Positions 3,230 through 24,739 of a stretch of 64,000 nt of DNA are shown here, one piece after another; the first letter of the stretch is position 1; every line of letters begins with the position of its first letter. The position numbers were made by a program, and so were the translations under genes. The stretch lies in the NCBI RefSeq assembly GCF_017348835.2, contig NZ_CP071375.1, one strand, 5' to 3'. The notes under the pieces were generated by a model. It searched no databases. It worked only from the letters and a program-made list of their open reading frames with translations, and was not told the DNA's origin. Origin of the DNA: Escherichia coli. GTDB taxonomy: Bacteria > Pseudomonadota > Gammaproteobacteria > Enterobacterales > Enterobacteriaceae.

Positions 3230-4529
3230 TCTCCCGCATATTGCCAGCATGGCTTTTAATGAGCCGCTGATGCTTGAACCCGCCTATGCGCGGGTTTTCT
3301 TTTGTGCGCTTGCAGGCCAGCTTGGGATCAGCCGCCTGACGGATGCAGTATCCGGCGACAGCCTGACTGCCGGAGAGGCACCCGCGGCGCTGGCGTTATC
3401 CGGTGATGATGACGGACCACGACAGGCCCGGAGTTATCAGGTCATGAACGGCATCGCCGTGCTGCCGGTGTCCGGTACGCTGGTCAGCCGGACGCGGGCG
3501 CTGCAGCCGTATTCGGGGATGACCGGTTACAACGGCATTATCGCCCGTCTGCAACAGGCTGCCAGCGACCCGATGGTGGACGGCATTCTGCTCGATATGG
3601 ACACACCGGGCGGAATGGTGGCGGGAGCATTTGACTGTGCTGACATCATCGCCCGTGTGCGTGACATAAAACCGGTATGGGCGCTGGCCAACGACATGAA
3701 CTGCAGTGCAGGTCAGCTGCTTGCCAGCGCCGCCTCCCGGCGTCTGGTCACGCAGACCGCCCGGACAGGCTCCATCGGCGTCATGATGGCTCACAGTAAT
3801 TACGGTGCTGCCCTGGAGAAACAGGGCGTGGAAATCACGCTGATTTACAGCGGCAGCCATAAGGTGGATGGCAACCCCTACAGCCATCTACCGGGTGATG
3901 TCCGGGAAACACTGCAGTCCCGGATGGATGCAACCCGCCGGATGTTTGCGCAGAAGGTGTCGGCATATACCGGCCTGTCCGTGCAGGCTGTGCTGGATAC
4001 CGAGGCTGCAGTGTACAGCGGTCAGGAGGCCATTGATGCCGGACTGGCTGATGAACTTGTCAACAGCACCGATGCGATCACCGTTATGCGTGATGCACTG
4101 GATGCACGTAAATCCCGTCTCTCAGGAGGGCGAATGACCAAAGAGACTCAATCAACAACTGTTTCAGCCACTGCTTCGCAGGCTGACGTTACTGGCGTGG
4201 TGCCAGCGATGGAGGGCGAAAACGCCAGCGCGGCGCAGCCGGACGTGAACGCGCAGATCACCGCTGCGGTTGCGGCAGAAAACAGCCGCATTATGGGGAT
4301 CCTCAACTGTGAGGAGGCTCACGGACGCGAAGAACAGGCCCGCGTGCTGGCAGAAACCCCCGGTATGACCGTGGAAACGGCCCGCCGCATTCTGGCCGCA
4401 GCACCACAGAGTGCACAGGCGCGCAGTGATACTGCGCTGGATCGTCTGATGCAGGGGGCACCGGCACCGCTGGCTGCAGGTAACCCGGCATCTGATGCCG
4501 TTAACGATTTGCTGAACACACCAGTGTAA
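3210..4529 (+). CDS. C: Head maturation protease / minor capsid protein C (S49 ClpP-like family)
   Basis: GTG start at 3210 gives 439 aa beginning MTAELRNLPHIASMAF as in lambda gpC; the track ORF 3075-4529 is the same frame with an upstream extension. Confidence 0.9.
3924..4529 (+). CDS. Nu3: Scaffolding protein Nu3, nested in-frame in the 3' part of C
   Basis: In-frame internal ATG 714 nt after the C start, the same spacing as lambda Nu3. Confidence 0.7.
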   Translation: MDATRRMFAQKVSAYTGLSVQAVLDTEAAVYSGQEAIDAGLADELVNSTDAITVMRDALDARKSRLSGGRMTKETQSTTVSATASQADVTGVVPAMEGENASAAQPDVNAQITAAVAAENSRIMGILNCEEAHGREEQARVLAETPGMTVETARRILAAAPQSAQARSDTALDRLMQGAPAPLAAGNPASDAVNDLLNTPV

Positions 4530-18441: not shown

Positions 18442-21402
18442 ATGGCAGTAAAGATTTCAGGTGTACTGAAAGACGGCACAGGAAAACCGGTACAGAACTG
18501 CATAATCCAGCTGAAAGCAAAACGTAACAGCACCACGGTGGTGGTGAACACGCTGGCCTCAGAAAATCCGGATGAAGCCGGGCGTTACAGCATGGACGTT
18601 GAGTACGGTCAGTACAGCGTTATTCTGTTGGTGGAGGGATTCCCGCCGTCACATGCCGGGACCATCACCGTGTATGAAGATTCTCAACCCGGTACGCTGA
18701 ATGATTTTCTCGGTGCCATGACGGAGGATGATGCCCGTCCGGAGGCACTGCGTCGTTTTGAACTGATGGTGGAAGAGGTGGCGCGTAACGCGTCCGTGGT
18801 GGCACAGAACACGGCAGCCGCAAAGAAGTCAGCCAGTGATGCCAGCACATCTGCCAGTGAGGCGGCAACCCGTGCGACTGATGCTGCAGATTCAGCACGT
18901 GCAGCCAGCACGTCAGCCGGACAGGCCGCGTCGTCGGCTCAGTCAGCGTCTTCCAGCGCAGGAACGGCATCAGCAAAAGCCTCTGAGGCATCAAAAAGTG
19001 CTGCCGCTGCAGAGTCCTCAAAAAGCGCGGCGGCTACCAGTGCCGGTGCGGCGAAAACGTCAGAAACGAATGCGGCAGCGTCAGAACAATCAGCCGCCAC
19101 TTCTGCATCCACCGCGACCACGAAAGCGTCAGAAGCTGCCACCTCAGCCCGGGATGCGGCGGCCTCAAAAGAGGCGGCAAAATCATCAGAAACGAGCGCA
19201 GCCTCGAGCGCCAGTAATGCCGCTTCCTCGGCAACGGCGGCAGGAAATTCCGCGAAGGCGGCAAAGACGTCTGAGACAAACGCTAAGTCCTCTGAAACGG
19301 CAGCAGCACAGAGTGCCTCCGCAGGCGCAGACTCAAAAACAGCGGCTGCATCATCTGCCAGCGCCGCGTCAACAAGTGCCGGGCAGGCCTCAGCCAGTGC
19401 CACCGCTGCCGGAAAGTCGGCAGAAAGTGCCGCATCGTCTGCTTCAACAGCCACAACGAAGGCTGGCGAAGCCACTGAACAGGCCAGCGCAGCAGCGAGT
19501 TCTGCTTCCGCAGCGAAGACATCCGAAACGAACGCGAAAGCGTCGGAAACCAGCGCAGAATCCTCAAAAACTGCTGCCGCATCGTCAGCCAGTTCGGCGG
19601 CGTCATCGGCATCATCTGCGTCTGCTTCAAAAGATGAGGCGACCAGACAAGCGTCAGCAGCGAAGAGCAGCGCCACGACGGCATCCACGAAGGCGACAGA
19701 GGCAGCTGGCAGTGCGACGGCGGCAGCTCAGAGCAAAAGTACGGCGGAATCCGCGGCAACGCGCGCCGAGACAGCGGCAAAACGGGCAGAGGATATTGCA
19801 TCCGCCGTGGCGCTTGAAGATGCGAGCACGACGAAAAAGGGGATAGTACAGCTCAGCAGTGCGACTAACAGCACTTCCGAGTCACTGGCGGCAACGCCAA
19901 AAGCAGTTAAGTCCGCGTATGACCTGGCTAACGGGAAATACACCGCACAGGATGCAACGACAGCACAGAAAGGGATAGTTCAGCTCAGCAGCGCGACCAA
20001 CAGCACATCTGAAATGCTGGCGGCAACGCCAAAGTCGGTAAAGGCAGCCTATGACCTTGCTAACGGGAAATATACCGCTCAGGACGCTACGACAGCACAA
20101 AAAGGAATTATCCAGCTCAGTAGTGCAACCAACAGCGCATCTGAAACGCTTGCCGCGACACCGAAAGCAGTGAAAGCAGCTAATGATAATGCGAATGGTC
20201 GGGTACCTTCTGCCCGTAAGGTGAATGGTAAGGCGCTTTCAGCGGATATAACACTGACGCCGAAAGATATTGGTACGCTTAACTCAACAACAATGTCATT
20301 CAGCGGTGGTGCTGGTTGGTTCAAATTAGCAACGGTAACCATGCCACAGGCGAGTTCTGTTGTTTCAATTACGTTGATTGGTGGCGCGGGATTTAACGTG
20401 GGGTCACCTCAACAGGCAGGTATATCTGAACTTGTTTTGCGTGCAGGTAATGGTAATCCGAAGGGGATTACTGGTGCTTTATGGCAGCGCACATCGACAG
20501 GGTTTACAAATTTTGCCTGGGTCAATACATCTGGTGATACTTACGATATTTACGTTGCAATCGGAAATTATGCGACTGGTGTAAATATTCAATGGGATTA
20601 TACCAGTAATGCCAGCGTGACTATTCATACGTCACCAGCATATTCTGCTAATAAGCCGGAAGGGTTAACGGACGGTACAGTTTATTCACTCTATACGCCA
20701 TCAGAGCAGTTTTATCCGCCTGGCGCACCAATCCCGTGGCCATCAGATACCGTTCCGTCTGGTTATGCCCTGATGCAGGGGCAGACTTTTGACAAATCTG
20801 CATACCCGAAACTTGCAGCCGCTTATCCGTCAGGCGTGATCCCTGATATGCGTGGCTGGACGATTAAGGGCAAACCCGCCAGTGGTCGTGCCGTATTGTC
20901 TCAGGAACAGGACGGCATTAAATCGCACACCCACAGCGCCAGCGCATCCAGTACGGATTTGGGGACGAAAACCACATCGTCGTTTGATTACGGCACTAAA
21001 TCCACGAATAACACCGGGGCTCATACGCACAGTCTGAGCGGCTCTACAAGCTCGGCCGGAGCACACTCGCACGTTGATGGTCGCAGGTTTAATACAAGCA
21101 CTTTTAAAGACACCTATCAGTATGGTTCTACAGCTGTCGGAAGTAACTCATACCAGGTACAAGGGGCGGTTGGTCTGGGCATTGGCACGATGGCGAATAC
21201 GAACTCTGCTGGCGCGCATACCCACTCACTGTCCGGCACTGCTGCAAGCGCAGGTGCACACGCACATACTGTCGGTATTGGTGCTCATACGCACTCCGTT
21301 GCGATTGGCTCACATGGACACACCATCACCGTTAACGCTGCTGGTAACGCGGAAAACACCGTCAAAAACATCGCATTTAACTATATTGTGAGGCTTGCAT
21401 AA
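18442..21402 (+). CDS. stf: Side tail fibre protein
   Basis: 986 aa: ~330-aa Ala/Ser/Thr-rich low-complexity segment, three tandem 44-aa tail fibre repeats, His-rich distal part with GAHTHS motifs. Confidence 0.9.
19819..20214 (+). repeat. Three tandem 132-bp coding repeats inside stf (phage tail fibre repeat)
   Basis: Unit [44 protein letters not shown] repeated at 19819, 19951 and 20083. Confidence 0.85.
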
Positions 21403-21986
21403 TGGCATTCAGAATGAGTGAACAAGCACGGACCATAAAAATTTATAATCTGCTGGCCGGAACTAATGAATTTATTGGTGAAGGTGATGCATATATTCCG
21501 CCTCATACAGGTCTGCCAGCAAACAGTACCGATATTGCACCACCAGATATTCCTGCTGGCTTTGTGGCTGTTTTCAACAGTGATGAGGCATCGTGGCATC
21601 TCGTTGAAGACCATCTGGGTAAAACGGTTTATGACGTAGCGTCAGGGGACGAGTTATTTATTTCTGAACTCGGTCCGTTACCGGAAAATGTTACCTGGTT
21701 ATCGCCGGAAGGGGAGTTTCAGAAGTGGAACGGCACAGCCTGGGTGAAAGATGCAGAAGCAGAAAAACTGTTCCGGATCCGAGAGGCGGAAGAAATAAAA
21801 AACAGCCTGATGCAGGTAGCCAGTGAGCATATTGCGCCACTTCAGGATGCTGTAGATCTGGAAATCGCAACGGAGGAAGAAACCTCATTGTTGGAAGCCT
21901 GGAAAAAGTATCGGGTGTTGCTGAACCGTGTTGATACATCAACTGCACCTGATATTGAGTGGCCTACGAATCCTGTCAGGGAGTAA
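21402..21986 (+). CDS. tfa: Tail fibre assembly chaperone
   Basis: 194 aa beginning [17 protein letters not shown]; start overlaps the stf stop (TAATG). Confidence 0.9.
21821..21941 (+). repeat. Direct repeat copy A (3' part of tfa)
   Basis: ~88 percent identical to 22870-22990, including a 40-nt identical core. Confidence 0.8.
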
Positions 21987-22040
21987 TCATTGGGATTATG
22001 CCGCAGCACGTCTTAAGCAAGAACGTGCTGCGGTTGGATG

Positions 22041-22709
22041 CTATTTTTTCCCTGAAGCGGAAAACATTACTACAGTACCTTGAACCTTGGTTTTAACATT
22101 CTCGAAATGCTCTGAGAGTATATGTGTTAAGCCTTCTTCGGAATCTTTTGTGTTTGAAAAGATGCCTTTCTGATTGTAAATGCGCATCAGTTTTTGACCG
22201 AAGCTATTGTGCACAACTCCATCGCCAAGAATTGTGGCTCCGTATAGAGTTCCATCGTCAGTTAAGGCCTGCGCCGCATTGCGTATTACACAGCTTTTTG
22301 TAGATATATTTCCAGGCAGGCAGTGAAGAAGGTAAAACATGGAAATGGAATCAAATTGACCATGTAACGCCGCGGGATAAGGTTCAAAAACATCATGGCT
22401 AATTTTATGTTTAATTTTTGATTCCCCAGCCCTTGTAGATGCCGCGTTCAGGCTAGCTTCGTTCAAATCCATTAAAGATATCAGACTACTCTCAGGTACG
22501 TGAGTAAGGTAAAACCCAGTTCCAACACCAATATCCAGATGGTTGTTACCTAAATGTTCCAGAAAGTGTGGAAGAAGGTGTTCCTTTGTAGGACATCCCC
22601 ATGCAAGCCGATTTGATACTCCCAAAACCCACCAGTCATAAAGCTTTAGGGTAAGTGGTGTGTAAATTTTAGCCCCATCATCTGTGTTTTTTTTCATTAA
22701 TTTCACCAT
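22041..22709 (-). CDS. ybcY: Class I SAM-dependent methyltransferase (prophage cargo, YbcY-like)
   Basis: 222 aa with GxGxG SAM motif LDIGVGTGFY; no DPPY/NPPY DNA-methylase motif; symbol from remembered K-12 DLP12 gene order. Confidence 0.75.
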   Translation of the reverse strand: MVKLMKKNTDDGAKIYTPLTLKLYDWWVLGVSNRLAWGCPTKEHLLPHFLEHLGNNHLDIGVGTGFYLTHVPESSLISLMDLNEASLNAASTRAGESKIKHKISHDVFEPYPAALHGQFDSISMFYLLHCLPGNISTKSCVIRNAAQALTDDGTLYGATILGDGVVHNSFGQKLMRIYNQKGIFSNTKDSEEGLTHILSEHFENVKTKVQGTVVMFSASGKK

Positions 22710-22765
22710 GTTATAGTTTTATTTGTGAATTAAATCAATTATGGCGATGAATTACAAGGGGTTAA

Positions 22766-23071
22766 ATGCTGCCGCAGCATAGCGATATTGAAATAGCCTG
22801 GTATGCTTCGATACAACAGGAGCCGAATGGCTGGAAGACCGTCACCACACAGTTCTACATCCAGGAATTCAGTGAGTATATTGCGCCACTGCAGGATGCT
22901 GTAGATCTGGAAATCGCAACGGAGGAAGAAAGATCGTTGCTGGAGGCATGGAATAAATATCGGGTATTGTTGAATCGAGTTGATACATCAGTAGCTCTGG
23001 GTATGAAGCTGTTTGTAACTCATGTTACAGTAACAGTCATTACTATCTCGAAGGTGCAAAATGTATATTGA
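22766..23071 (+). pseudogene. tfaX: Tail fibre assembly protein remnant (C-terminal Tfa segment only)
   Basis: 101-aa ORF containing [38 protein letters not shown], a near copy of the Tfa C-terminus; no Tfa N-domain. Confidence 0.65.
22870..22990 (+). repeat. Direct repeat copy B (within the tfa remnant)
   Basis: Pairs with 21821-21941. Confidence 0.8.
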
Positions 23072-23199
23072 TTTGATATTTTATAAATTTACTTCGAATC
23101 TGGCACGTCAACTTTTGATTAAAGTAATATCAGTTTTCGGCGAAAAAAGGACCGTGTACATGAGACGATTTCATACAATAATAACAAAAATATGAATAT

Positions 23200-23233
23200 G
23201 CTCCCAATGCAATATATGTTTTGCATTGGGAGC
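23200..23233. terminator. Perfect 13-bp-stem hairpin downstream of the hydrolase gene
   Basis: gctcccaatgcaa-tatatgtt-ttgcattgggagc read in sequence. Confidence 0.55.
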
Positions 23234-23254
23234 AAATAGCGGAATATTTTGAAA

Positions 23255-24739
23255 TTATTGTATTTCTGCTTCAGAATTTCCTGGGCAGTATATATTTTCT
23301 ATTTTTTGTGGAGTGATCAGGTGATGTACAACTGCTTTATCTACACATAAATTAACTCCGGTGAGAGCTAATGTATGCCCATCACCATTTATTGTTAGTA
23401 ACGGGCTGGAAAATTTCTCTGCCATCTTACGGGCATTAATCCAGGGCGTTGTTGGGTCGTATTTGTGTGCTATAAACAGTAAACCAGAGGGCAGAACAGT
23501 ATTTTTCAGGCGAGTTTTGTTCAGGTCGCTATGTATTGGCCATAATTCACAAAAATCAGGTGAATCGGAACGTCCATTGTCAAAGTTAATAGCCGGGAAG
23601 GCATTCGCAAGAGCGTCTTTTCGGGATTTTCGCTCTTCTGGTGTTAATTGCTCATCCCCCTGATCTACACAGAGGATTACCCCCGAAGCATCGCTTGACT
23701 CTTCTGAGGCTATCGGAGCACTGAGCGCAGTTTCAATTTCATTACTGACAATCCCCTGAGAGAACTGGCGTATGGCAGTTGCAAGGGTTGGCCATGATGA
23801 ACGCCATAGCAGAAGGTCTGTTGTTAATGATATGAGTTCATCTGAAGATATATTTTCTCTCTTACTGTCTAATAAAGGTTTGTGATGTAATTTTGATAAT
23901 AGCTCATGGAACTGAGTTATTGCCTTATCTCTGTCTGAAGAAAGCGGGCAACTTTTTGTACGCGCACACCAGGATGCAAAGCGATCAAACGTTTCCTGAT
24001 AACTCTGTGCCTGTTTGAGTTGCCATGTGAAGTTGTCCTCCAGGTCATCGATATCGACGACTCCATCAAGAACGATAGATCTTACGTTGTAGGGAAAACG
24101 TTCTGCATATAAGGCTGCAATTTGAGTTCCATACGAATACGCCACGGCTGTCAGTTGTTTATCCCCCAAGGCTTGCCTAATACGATCAATATCGTATACA
24201 GCCTCGTTAGAGCCGATATGGCGAATGACTTCGGCTCCGGTATTATGGATACAGGCATTAATTTTATTTAATACTTGTTGCTTTTCGGTTATGTTTTCCT
24301 GAGTCTCTGTATCTGATTGCCGGCAGTTTATTGTCGGAGTGGACTGTCCGACGCCTCGAGGATCAAATCCAATAATATCCCATGACTCACGAAGATTTGT
24401 GACTGGCCAGTCAAAGTTAATATAAGGATTTATGCCTGGTAACCCGGGACCACCACTTATTATCAGGATACTTCCTTTATGCTTGCTTTTTGCCGGCAAT
24501 TTTGTCAACGCTAGTTTGACTTGTGATTTTTTTTCATAAGAAGCATCTCCGCCTGTGTCTGTATATTTTAATGGAACAGACAAATAACCACATAGTAAGT
24601 CAGGAGACGGTTTTTCCTCACCAAACCAGTGGTTGAATTGACTGGCCATACAGGATTGCCACTGTATCTGCTGGGCAGATACGGTTACTGGTAGAAGTAA
24701 CGTTAAAACAACTTTGAAATGAGTAATTATTTTTCGCAT
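23255..24739 (-). CDS. Secreted alpha/beta-hydrolase, peptidase S33 / TAP-like family, unknown substrate
   Basis: 494 aa; signal peptide MRKIITHFKVVLTLLLPVTVSAQQ; GGPG oxyanion motif, FDPRGVGQS, nucleophile elbow AYSYG, C-terminal Asp (KYDPTTP) and His (NGDGHT); low-GC gene. Confidence 0.7.
   Translation of the reverse strand: MRKIITHFKVVLTLLLPVTVSAQQIQWQSCMASQFNHWFGEEKPSPDLLCGYLSVPLKYTDTGGDASYEKKSQVKLALTKLPAKSKHKGSILIISGGPGLPGINPYINFDWPVTNLRESWDIIGFDPRGVGQSTPTINCRQSDTETQENITEKQQVLNKINACIHNTGAEVIRHIGSNEAVYDIDRIRQALGDKQLTAVAYSYGTQIAALYAERFPYNVRSIVLDGVVDIDDLEDNFTWQLKQAQSYQETFDRFASWCARTKSCPLSSDRDKAITQFHELLSKLHHKPLLDSKRENISSDELISLTTDLLLWRSSWPTLATAIRQFSQGIVSNEIETALSAPIASEESSDASGVILCVDQGDEQLTPEERKSRKDALANAFPAINFDNGRSDSPDFCELWPIHSDLNKTRLKNTVLPSGLLFIAHKYDPTTPWINARKMAEKFSSPLLTINGDGHTLALTGVNLCVDKAVVHHLITPQKIENIYCPGNSEAEIQ

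Follow-up and report, generated by a model that had tools for sequence, protein, structure and literature searches.

The stretch of DNA analysed here, a window of 64,000 nucleotides from Escherichia coli (contig NZ_CP071375.1, assembly GCF_017348835.2), contains the tfaD–ybcY–tfaX corner of a DLP12-type lambda-like E. coli prophage, which has already been annotated and does not represent a new kind of element. Its architecture is that of ordinary phage mosaicism. We give a probability of about three in four to the reading that a DLP12-family lambdoid prophage occupies argU and that this region forms its accessory (b-region-like) end, in which a relic gene (tfaX), a mosaic history and a moron-like small-molecule methyltransferase are found together.

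On the right arm of the prophage, the order is J, lom, stf, tfa, ybcY, the tfaX relic, an alpha/beta hydrolase gene, ompT and attR (Table 1). The genome of E. coli PE164 is 100% identical to the stretch, and its annotation gives J, lom, a tail fibre gene, tfa, a methyltransferase, a tfa pseudogene, a hydrolase, ompT and envY::IS3. The match of attR in locus L003 overlaps an annotated tRNA-Arg (4301-4377), and the comparison with phages and genomes showed that phage homology stops at 26348-26352. The succession of the hydrolase gene and ompT is common to the phages ev243, 2G7b, PhiR26_1 and PhiR49_1. Where appY is present instead, its cassette begins to replace the window sequence at about 22995. 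In K-12, the DLP12 tfaD–ybcY–tfaX segment, followed by appY, ompT and envY, occupies the same chromosomal site in the same order and orientation, and its DNA is 98% identical over window positions 21548-22965. The K-12 version is degraded, whereas the window retains the prophage structural genes and an intact ybcY. At 581-585 kb, K-12 has tfa', a frameshifted methyltransferase gene, tfa', appY, ompT and envY; its tfaD has lost the 5' part and is fused with a piece of a terminase gene, its tfaX is interrupted by a stop codon and retains more of the tfa 3' part than that of the window, and its appY takes the place of the hydrolase gene.

Table 1. Features of the tfa–ybcY–tfaX region and of the adjoining prophage end (positions in the window).
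Feature	Position	Strand	Basis or remark
tfa, tail fibre assembly, 194 aa, complete; last late-operon gene	21402-21986	+	phrog_105, E=1e-98, residues 1-192
Repeat copy 1, tfa codons 137-180, most conserved C-terminal Tfa segment	21810-21941	+	Alignment
Strong hairpin between convergent tfa and methyltransferase genes	22000-22033		RNA folding
ybcY-type class I SAM-dependent methyltransferase, intact, 222 aa	22041-22709	minus	Pfam; phrog_2132, E=8e-157; WP_000239881.1 in the 100%-identical genome
Upstream spacer with two sigma-70-like candidate promoters	22710-22765	minus	TTGATT-17-TATAAC at 22738-22710; TTAACC-16-CATAAT at 22765-22738
Chimeric 101-aa ORF, K-12 tfaX equivalent	22766-23071	+	Open in the window; decaying pseudogene across lineages
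31-codon 5' fragment of a small, unrelated phage gene of phrog_3893 type	22766-22858	+	In-frame fusion to the tfa relic
Repeat copy 2, tfaX relic, conserved C-terminal Tfa segment only, truncated on both sides	22859-22990	+	Alignment
AT-rich spacer, 32.6% GC	22991-23254		Contains the hydrolase terminator hairpin, 23199-23234 (minus)
Other cargo: alpha/beta hydrolase, 494 aa	23255-24739	minus	ORFs and identical-genome annotation
Other cargo: ompT	24926-25879	minus	ORFs and identical-genome annotation
attR, 50-nt copy of the tRNA-Arg (argU) 3' end, right prophage end	26299-26348	+	98% match to locus L003, 4330-4379

An earlier note on this DNA, made from the sequence alone, had described a direct repeat of about 88% identity with a 40-nt identical core, and alignment confirmed it far above the shuffled background. 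In the ungapped comparison, 21821-21941 and 22870-22990 agree at 107 of 121 positions (88.4%), and the longest stretch without a mismatch measures exactly 40 nt (21843-21882 and 22892-22931). Local alignment widens the repeat to 132 nt (21810-21941 and 22859-22990; 86% identity), gap-free at an offset of 1049, with a score of 174 against 20.7 ± 2.1 (maximum 28) in 200 shuffles. The first copy does lie in tfa, as the note had it, but it is not the extreme 3' end of the gene, because 45 nt (15 codons) of tfa follow it up to the stop codon at 21984-21986. Each copy is in frame with its own ORF. The 121-nt core contains 10 synonymous and 3 non-synonymous codon differences, and 11 of the 18 differences in the repeat fall at third codon positions. 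Because the differences are mainly synonymous, we regard the copies as two tfa alleles that diverged while functional and not as an insertion duplication; the presence of two different tfa alleles 1 kb from each other accounts for the direct repeat.

The first of these alleles is annotated as a tail fiber assembly protein in the identical genome and comprises both the N-terminal part and the conserved C-terminal segment of Tfa; its GC content is 46.8%, and the peptide segment of copy 1 is common to P2 gpG, P1 gpU and SfMu Tfa. The second had been taken for a C-terminal remnant of tfa, which is borne out by annotation and profile matches. PGAP gives a tfa pseudogene 'missing N-terminus' at 22859-23071, the Tfa-like part of the chimeric ORF comprises residues 27/32-77 only, and the profile alignment is confined to residues 29-77 (positions 145-193 of 239), so that the ORF does not qualify as a full-length Tfa. 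The relic has lost the N-terminal two-thirds of Tfa as well as its final 15 residues. Upstream of it, residues 3-37 match positions 2-36 of the 79 positions of phrog_3893 (E=4e-7), and a complete 79-aa homologue of this fragment is found in Klebsiella phage Kp4887-3. Since the first ~31 codons of the ORF come from an unrelated gene, we regard their junction with the remnant as an illegitimate crossover between different genomes. A full-length tfa allele matching the relic was not found in the phage collection, where the best non-relic matches reach about 87%, and neither was a parent genome with an intact methyltransferase/phrog_3893 divergent pair or a complete tfaX-type tfa.

The cassette recurs in K-12, in most E. 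coli genomes and in phages, in line with the comparison proposed earlier. The methyltransferase gene is present in 3,798 of 5,426 complete E. coli genomes (~70%), and in 3,287 of 3,836 records the identity of its protein is 99% or more. The protein is carried by 15 phage records with 99-100% identity (100% to that of the window in ev243, 2G7b and PhiR26_1), and the order in them is fibres, methyltransferase, tfa relic, hydrolase or appY, ompT and int. Lambda, HK630, ev099 and others have tfa and lack the methyltransferase. Related phages that are otherwise collinear here either have the gene or lack it, as is typical of a moron, and its upstream and downstream partners vary.

The left edges of shared homology were found at 21867/21870 or at 21995-22001, and the right edges at 22965 or 22995. 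In O157:H7, O22:H8, Kati and PhiR68_2, the methyltransferase module begins on the left at ~21995-22001, at the hairpin, and other cargo (pin, ydfK/ynaE, catalase genes) stands between tfa and the methyltransferase gene. In ev243, 2G7b and PhiR49_1, both flanking tfa segments are 5'-truncated relics with no tfa upstream; the left one starts at 21867, and BLAST gives it a length of 120 nt in ev243-type phages. The ev243 gp25 was considered as a short Tfa and rejected, its translation being a small hydrophobic protein unrelated to Tfa.

A history of the locus can be proposed, in which the order of the recombination events is reconstructed from present-day mosaics. One parent would have carried tfa, the hairpin, the methyltransferase gene on the minus strand, a promoter spacer and the phrog_3893 gene on the plus strand. 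A single illegitimate, slightly out-of-register crossover would have joined this parent to a second lambdoid genome, inside the tfa of that genome, giving a product with tfa, the methyltransferase gene, a '3893::tfa' fusion and downstream cargo. Later swaps, with breakpoints within or next to the conserved 3' segments of tfa, may have replaced the fibre modules on the left side and the cargo (appY or hydrolase) on the right side. At present, the first tfa is functional and belongs to the current fibre module, and the second (tfaX) is dead.

Another explanation, to which we give an appreciable but minority likelihood, holds that the conserved 3' segments of tfa serve as 'linkers' for recombination, through which fibre modules and cargo are swapped, and that the position of the methyltransferase gene between them favours its spread. 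The junctions at 21867/21870, 22965 and 22995 lie in or beside both segments, and the 40-nt identical run could be used by RecA or Red recombination. Furthermore, the relic varies from 88% to 100% identity among phages whose methyltransferases are 99-100% identical, and such a variable relic next to a near-constant gene suggests exchange or gene conversion inside the relic. However, the apparent clustering of junctions comes from about a dozen loci only, and the junctions at 21867 (in ev243-type phages), 22859 and 22990 are illegitimate because they join non-homologous DNA. The deletion product predicted from recombination between both repeats was found in 0 of 5,426 genomes.

The earlier note had read the repeats as the footprint of a moron inserted into, or exchanged with, a tail fibre assembly gene. 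As an insertion, a mobile methyltransferase cassette would have entered tfa and left either a duplicated target or the halves of the interrupted gene. The methyltransferase gene does lie exactly between two direct tfa-derived segments, and both flanks are relics in ev243, 2G7b and PhiR49_1, so the cassette travels with both flanks in some phages. Nevertheless, this reading is improbable and the footprint claim is not supported. In the window, the left copy sits within a complete tfa, with no split 5' half; the two copies differ by 12-14%, with a strong bias to synonymous changes, whereas the methyltransferase gene enclosed by them hardly varies (99% identity or more across most genomes and phages); the right junction is with a fragment of a third gene, phrog_3893; and the left boundary in several genomes is at the hairpin (21995-22001), outside tfa. 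Mobile-element ends are also missing: the alignment search gave no inverted repeats around 22000-22860, the ORF list contains no recombinase between tfa and the hydrolase gene, and no transposase or short target-site duplication flanks the methyltransferase gene, the flanking repeat being 132 nt of diverged coding sequence.

What remains of the earlier moron reading, once the insertion footprint is removed, is an accessory gene of low GC content with candidate promoters and a hairpin. The moron concept is reportedly that of Hendrix, Juhala and colleagues, with lom and bor of lambda as examples. Like such lambdoid morons, ybcY is an extra gene at a module boundary, with a distinct base composition (40.8% GC vs 54.7% in stf and 56.4% in J), candidate promoters and a terminator-like hairpin, and its direction of transcription is opposite to that of the late operon. 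Unlike most morons, which are not known to keep a flanking relic that records their joining, ybcY is accompanied by one.

The methyltransferase gene lies on the opposite strand between the repeat copies, as had been noted, and its ORF is intact and free of frameshifts in the window. Its true start is probably Met5 (22697), giving 218 aa, which is favoured by the length of the homologues (218 aa) and by a PHROG profile alignment that starts at residue 5. On the plus strand, the hairpin between the convergent genes has -28.5 kcal/mol (z -5.7) and an extended stem followed by a U6 run at 22044-22049; on the minus strand, a strong hairpin without a U-run (-23.6 kcal/mol, z -5.3) follows the methyltransferase stop. 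The ybcY/tfaX spacer of K-12 is listed among the constitutive promoters of the RpoD holoenzyme with exactly TTGATT-17-TATAAC for ybcY, and the same catalogue sets an H-NS flag on it (Shimada et al., 2014; PMC3946193). The published hexamers are unchanged in the window, and the flag suggests silencing. Promoter-like sequences in the region are no more numerous than in shuffles. In the published promoter, the -10 element directly adjoins the annotated ATG, so that the start of transcription and the leader can be placed only tentatively. Judged from its sequence, the gene may form an autonomous transcription unit, convergent with tfa, with candidate sigma-70 promoters in the 150-bp spacer and a shared 3' hairpin, and we infer that the prophage could express it without late transcription.

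The Pfam search that had been proposed for the protein gave matches to Methyltransf_12/23/25/11/31 (Methyltransf_12, E=6e-9), all of them generic families of small-molecule methyltransferases. NCBIfam contained no family for the methyltransferase, tfa or the relic. The protein has the features of a class I enzyme. The GxGxG of SAM motif I is present as GVGTG at residues 61-65, and in the 218-aa numbering G57, G59 and G61 are invariant or nearly so across 50 homologues; D77, in an 'LxDLN' motif, is invariant and provides the acidic residue at the end of strand 2. The AlphaFold2 model (pLDDT 96) contains seven core strands and flanking helices in an alternating beta/alpha fold. The family comprises 1,319 clusters at 50% identity (E<=0.001) of mostly single-domain proteins of ~220 aa, in which Y20, G57, D77, H125, G153 and D185 are invariant. 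The absence of DNA-methylase motifs, claimed before, was upheld by the motif scan and Pfam: no (D/N/S)PP(Y/F/W/H) or PC(Q/S) motif was found, the single 'ENV' tripeptide (residue 203) stands without a partner motif, and no DNA-methylase Pfam family matched. A marginal PADLOC match to mad2 (E=0.003) was dismissed as generic SAM-domain similarity.

Sequence searches of the PDB with the single protein and with a 50-sequence profile gave only generic SAM-core matches, with E values of at least 4e-6. The PDB neighbours listed are all small-molecule or lipid methyltransferases (PmtA, JHAMT, SgvM, phosphoethanolamine methyltransferase and NodS). Foldseek against AFDB50 gave neighbours with 34-46% identity and TM ~0.9, including ctvB (34%, TM 0.91), verB (36%, TM 0.89) and vrtF (40%, TM 0.95). 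The nearest named relatives are fungal alpha-pyrone O-methyltransferases, similar over the whole domain at 34-40% identity. The CtvB enzyme and its AurB/AstB/DovB relatives catalyze the O-methylation of an alpha-pyrone hydroxyl (PMC12312803). Like CtvB/VerB (the AurB, AstB, DovB family) and VrtF, the phage protein is a single-domain enzyme of Methyltransf_12 type (~220-250 aa, TM ~0.9-0.95). These relatives are eukaryotic biosynthetic-cluster enzymes, whereas the phage and enterobacterial proteins stand alone, with no polyketide cluster nearby. The chromosomal homologues in Salmonella and Enterobacter are stand-alone genes, and a comparison of their context and that of two metagenome contigs revealed no conserved neighbours pointing to a pathway.

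On its modelled structure, the methyltransferase belongs with the small-molecule type of SAM enzymes and has a single domain with a Rossmann fold. Its most likely reaction is the O-methylation of an enolic, phenolic or carboxyl group, not DNA, RNA or protein methylation, and the acceptor is probably a small hydrophobic metabolite. The assignment of this substrate class is based on the 34-40% identity to the fungal enzymes together with the fold similarity. A literature search on ybcY and tfaX returned the promoter catalogue, descriptions of the ompT context and work on the tfaX/appY spacer, and no functional study. As a speculative and rather unlikely extension, YbcY might be a lysogenic-conversion enzyme that O-methylates an enolic or phenolic hydroxyl of a host or gut metabolite or of a toxin to the benefit of the lysogen, with the flanking tfa 3' segments as portable homology that moves the cassette among lambdoid phages with differing fibre modules.

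Still less probable is the modification of a membrane lipid head group, in the manner of the phosphatidylethanolamine N-methyltransferase PmtA, by which the envelope of the lysogen would be altered. The best PDB fold match is indeed PmtA (8ys9, E=3e-11, TM 0.69/0.72), which has a similar size of 207 aa, phosphoethanolamine N-methyltransferases rank high among the fold matches, and the nearby cargo genes lom and ompT encode envelope proteins. However, the identity to PmtA is only 16%, and the much closer AFDB relatives (34-46%) are polyketide O-methyltransferases.

It is very unlikely that the chimeric ORF encodes a small protein with a function, such as a Tfa C-terminal domain on its own. The in-frame fusion is open in the window and in many genomes, has its own PHROG (phrog_2341, E=5e-56) and lies downstream of a divergent promoter region. 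Against this, tfaX has been inactivated independently by a TAG stop (K-12, Kati, PhiR68_2), by a 7-nt deletion (2G7b, PhiR49_1) and by an IS66-family insertion at 22989-22997 (O157:H7), and both its truncations and the pseudogene annotation described above point the same way.

Duplicated fibre and chaperone genes occur in invertible segments, such as the S-U/U'-S' arrangement of the Mu G segment, the P1 C segment and the pin systems of e14, Rac and Qin. The locus recalls them by its two tfa-type sequences close together downstream of a tail fibre gene and, in O22:H8, Kati and PhiR68_2, by a pin-type invertase between tfa and the methyltransferase gene. An invertible segment of the Mu or P1 type was rejected, since the copies are direct and the window has no invertase; the second copy also differs in being a truncated pseudogene without a fibre C-terminal partner.

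As a discovery, the locus is small, its genes being already annotated in K-12 (tfaD, ybcY, tfaX) and in thousands of genomes. It illustrates how a moron would become fixed: a gene relic remains after one illegitimate, out-of-register crossover, and the surrounding genes are later rearranged by exchanges of the homologous or illegitimate kind. For this very widespread and well conserved phage-borne methyltransferase, the structural link to pyrone and phenol O-methyltransferases provides an entry point for assays.

In E. coli PE164 the stretch recurs at 100% identity; the annotation there reads, in order, J (host-specificity protein), Lom, tail fibre, Tfa, the class I SAM methyltransferase WP_000239881.1 and a Tfa pseudogene "missing N-terminus", then an alpha/beta hydrolase, OmpT, an envY into which an IS3-family element has inserted, and ybcH. 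The same place is occupied by a degraded version in a K-12-type genome (strain L-form0, 581-585 kb): a terminase fragment, a 5'-truncated tfa, a methyltransferase gene with a frameshift and a tfa fragment interrupted by a stop codon, then appY, ompT and envY. In K-12 nomenclature, the truncated tfa, the frameshifted methyltransferase and the tfa fragment are tfaD, ybcY and tfaX, which belong to the cryptic prophage DLP12. The element is thus already known: it is the tfaD-ybcY-tfaX region that DLP12-type prophages carry, here with its phage context intact.

Coordinates of the features (window positions unless a locus is named)
Feature	Position	Strand	Remark
stf repeat region	18800-20100		132-nt tandem duplication, 19819-19950 / 19951-20082, 79%
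tfa	21402-21986	+	194 aa (phrog_105, E=1e-98)
Repeat, ungapped	21821-21941 / 22870-22990		107/121 identical, 88.4%
Repeat, local alignment	21810-21941 / 22859-22990		132 nt, 86%
Longest identical run	21843-21882 = 22892-22931		exactly 40 nt
Left module edge	21867		ev243, 2G7b, PhiR49_1
Left module edge	21870		strain AZ191
Left module edge	21995-22001		O157:H7, O22:H8, Kati, PhiR68_2
tfa 3' relic of ev243, 2G7b, PhiR49_1	equals 21867-21986; ev243 locus L006 6670-6843		120 nt
Hairpin	22000-22033	+	-28.5 kcal/mol (z -5.7), U6 run after
Hairpin	22000-22033	-	-23.6 kcal/mol (z -5.3)
Methyltransferase	22041-22709	-	probable start Met5 (22697)
Candidate promoter TTGATT-17-TATAAC	22738-22710	-	150-bp spacer upstream of methyltransferase
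Candidate promoter TTAACC-16-CATAAT	22765-22738	-	same spacer
phrog_3893-like codons	22766-22858	+	31 codons, E=4e-7
Right module edge	22965		K-12
Right module edge	22995		Kati, PhiR68_2
Right module edge	none		hydrolase-type loci, continuous to attR
IS66-family insertion, O157:H7	22989-22997; Balcarce_14.2 locus L005 6091-8403
Hydrolase	23255-24739	-	494 aa
attR (argU 3' end)	26299-26348		50 nt, 98%
End of phage homology	26348-26352		ev243, 2G7b, PhiR49_1
envY	26392-28466		split by IS3-family element
IS3-family transposase	26726-27052, 27052-27939		programmed frameshift
Reduced prophage, AZ191	L003 4301-6330
phrog_3893-type gene, Klebsiella phage Kp4887-3	L010 3504-3743		79 aa

The prophage ends in a copy of the 3' end of tRNA-Arg (argU), where homology to sequenced phages also stops. 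The phage genome therefore includes the methyltransferase and the relic as well as the hydrolase and ompT, all of which lie between the fibre genes and att/int; the end of homology makes ompT and the hydrolase phage cargo and leaves envY outside. The methyltransferase occupies the same position in 15 phage records with 99-100% protein identity, including ev243, 2G7b, PhiR26_1, PhiR29, PhiR30, PhiR49, PhiR68_2, Kati and Turner. Of 5,426 complete E. coli genomes, 3,798 have the gene (coverage of at least 80%), in most cases with an identity of 99% or higher. The ybcY-adjacent ompT context has been described in UPEC strains (CFT073, UTI89, 536 and others) (PMC6854850). Elsewhere in the stretch, stf holds many short Ala/Ser-rich repeat families, with GC of about 60% and strong AT skew.

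The ORF between the repeat copies is intact and encodes, as the earlier note had read it, a class I SAM methyltransferase; it matches Pfam Methyltransf_12/23/25/11/31, and no DNA-methylase motifs were found in it. Its family comprises 1,319 clusters (50% identity) at E<=0.001, 194 of them at E<=1e-30, with mostly single-domain members of about 220 aa, the invariant residues Y20, G57, D77, H125, G153 and D185, and the conserved motifs YD..VLG.SN...W.CPT, HLD.GVGTG, L.DLN and FDSIS..YLLHCLPG. Enterobacterial homologues (56-70% identity) are chromosomal, stand-alone and without common neighbours. AlphaFold2 models the protein with high confidence (pLDDT 96, pTM 0.92). Matches of the model among solved structures are remote (13-21% identity); each is an enzyme that acts on small molecules or lipids, the best being the phosphatidylethanolamine N-methyltransferase PmtA (TM ~0.7), beside juvenile-hormone acid methyltransferase, SgvM, phosphoethanolamine methyltransferase and NodS. 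Named relatives in the AlphaFold database (34-46% identity, TM ~0.9) include the fungal proteins ctvB, verB and vrtF and, from a lichen, a "putative O-methyltransferase"; CtvB and its relatives AurB/AstB/DovB O-methylate an alpha-pyrone hydroxyl (PMC12312803). These relatives suggest, with moderate confidence, a small-molecule O-methyltransferase as a class, and a lipid head-group methyltransferase is the weaker alternative. Confidence in any particular substrate is low.

The methyltransferase has a GC content of 40.8%, against 54.7% in stf and 56.4% in J. It is convergent with tfa, and a strong hairpin lies between the two stop codons. Translation probably begins at Met5, because homologues are 218 aa long and the PHROG profile alignment begins at residue 5. 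The K-12 ybcY/tfaX spacer was listed among constitutive RpoD holoenzyme promoters and flagged for H-NS (Shimada et al., 2014; PMC3946193), and the hexamer pair given there for ybcY is exactly that of the candidate promoter nearer the gene. Its -10 adjoins the annotated ATG, which fits a Met5 start and leaves the real 5' end uncertain.

Alignment confirms the direct repeat at the positions that the earlier note gave, with a local alignment score of 174 against 20.7 +/- 2.1 in shuffled sequence. Its first copy, described there as the 3' 121 nt of tfa, is indeed inside that gene and in frame, but the stop codon follows 45 nt beyond its end. Both copies keep the reading frame of their own ORF. Codon differences in the 121-nt core are synonymous in 10 cases and non-synonymous in only 3, and third positions hold 11 of the 18 differences over the full 132 nt. 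The probability of such a bias is near 1e-4 by our rough binomial estimate, which expects about three quarters of random changes to be non-synonymous. This bias points to divergence while both copies were functional genes. The copies differ by 12-14%, whereas the methyltransferase between them is near-invariant; in the phage collection, no full-length tfa closer than ~87% to copy 2 was found. We read the copies as two tfa alleles from two genomes, not as a duplication by insertion.

The downstream copy is, as proposed, a tfa C-terminal remnant, holding only the conserved segment common to P2 gpG, P1 gpU and SfMu Tfa. Its 5' side is joined, without a change of frame, to codons that resemble the N-terminal part of an unrelated phage protein (phrog_3893), of which Kp4887-3 has a complete homologue; there, the gene and the beginning of a 130-aa ORF overlap. 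On its 3' side, tfa homology ends at 22990. Independent lesions disrupt the chimeric ORF in different lineages, namely a TAG stop (K-12, Kati, PhiR68_2), a 7-nt deletion (2G7b, PhiR49_1) and an IS66-family insertion (O157:H7); the ORF is a decaying relic. In O157:H7 Balcarce_14.2, the IS66-family element (ISEc8 type) sits exactly at the relic's 3' end, and the equivalents of the insertion site flank it on both sides, consistent with target duplication.

The edges of methyltransferase-module homology were compared between the window and eleven other loci. In ev243, 2G7b and PhiR49_1, a different fibre module without a tfa gene is present, only a tfa 3' relic remains to the left, and two tfa relics flank the methyltransferase cassette. 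The gene beside the left relic (gp25; 97-99 aa) encodes a small hydrophobic protein, not Tfa. In O157:H7, O22:H8, Kati and PhiR68_2, pin, ydfK/ynaE or catalase genes separate tfa from the methyltransferase. From the right edges up to 24922, an appY cassette stands in place of the hydrolase gene, so that the hydrolase slot is the appY slot of K-12, Kati and PhiR68_2 (junctions ~22995 and ~24922). The hydrolase itself is TAP-like, with weak prolyl aminopeptidase similarity, and matches phrog_20134 and the PADLOC candidate-defence model PDLC01094 "C3a206 TAP-like protein" (E=3e-55). Of the AZ191 prophage, only argU, an integrase fragment, a tfa fragment, the methyltransferase and ompT remain; the methyltransferase ORF is still intact despite this decay.

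An invertible fibre segment was rejected as the identity of the element. A transposable cassette was likewise rejected, since the locus showed neither inverted repeats nor target duplications, and no recombinase gene. Of the moron footprint proposed in the earlier note, a moron-like gene is supported; the idea that the repeats bracket an insertion does not hold, in view of the complete tfa around copy 1, the synonymous bias and the phrog_3893 fusion. No methyltransferase-deletion product of recombination between the repeats was found in the 5,426 genomes. The simplest history would be one illegitimate, out-of-register crossover between two collinear lambdoid genomes, in which a genome with tfa, hairpin, methyltransferase (minus), spacer and phrog_3893 gene (plus) was joined to a second in the middle of its tfa. 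Afterwards, the fibre module and the downstream cargo would have been exchanged, with junctions within or beside the tfa segments. The architecture of the element fits the established mosaicism of lambdoid phages and their morons.
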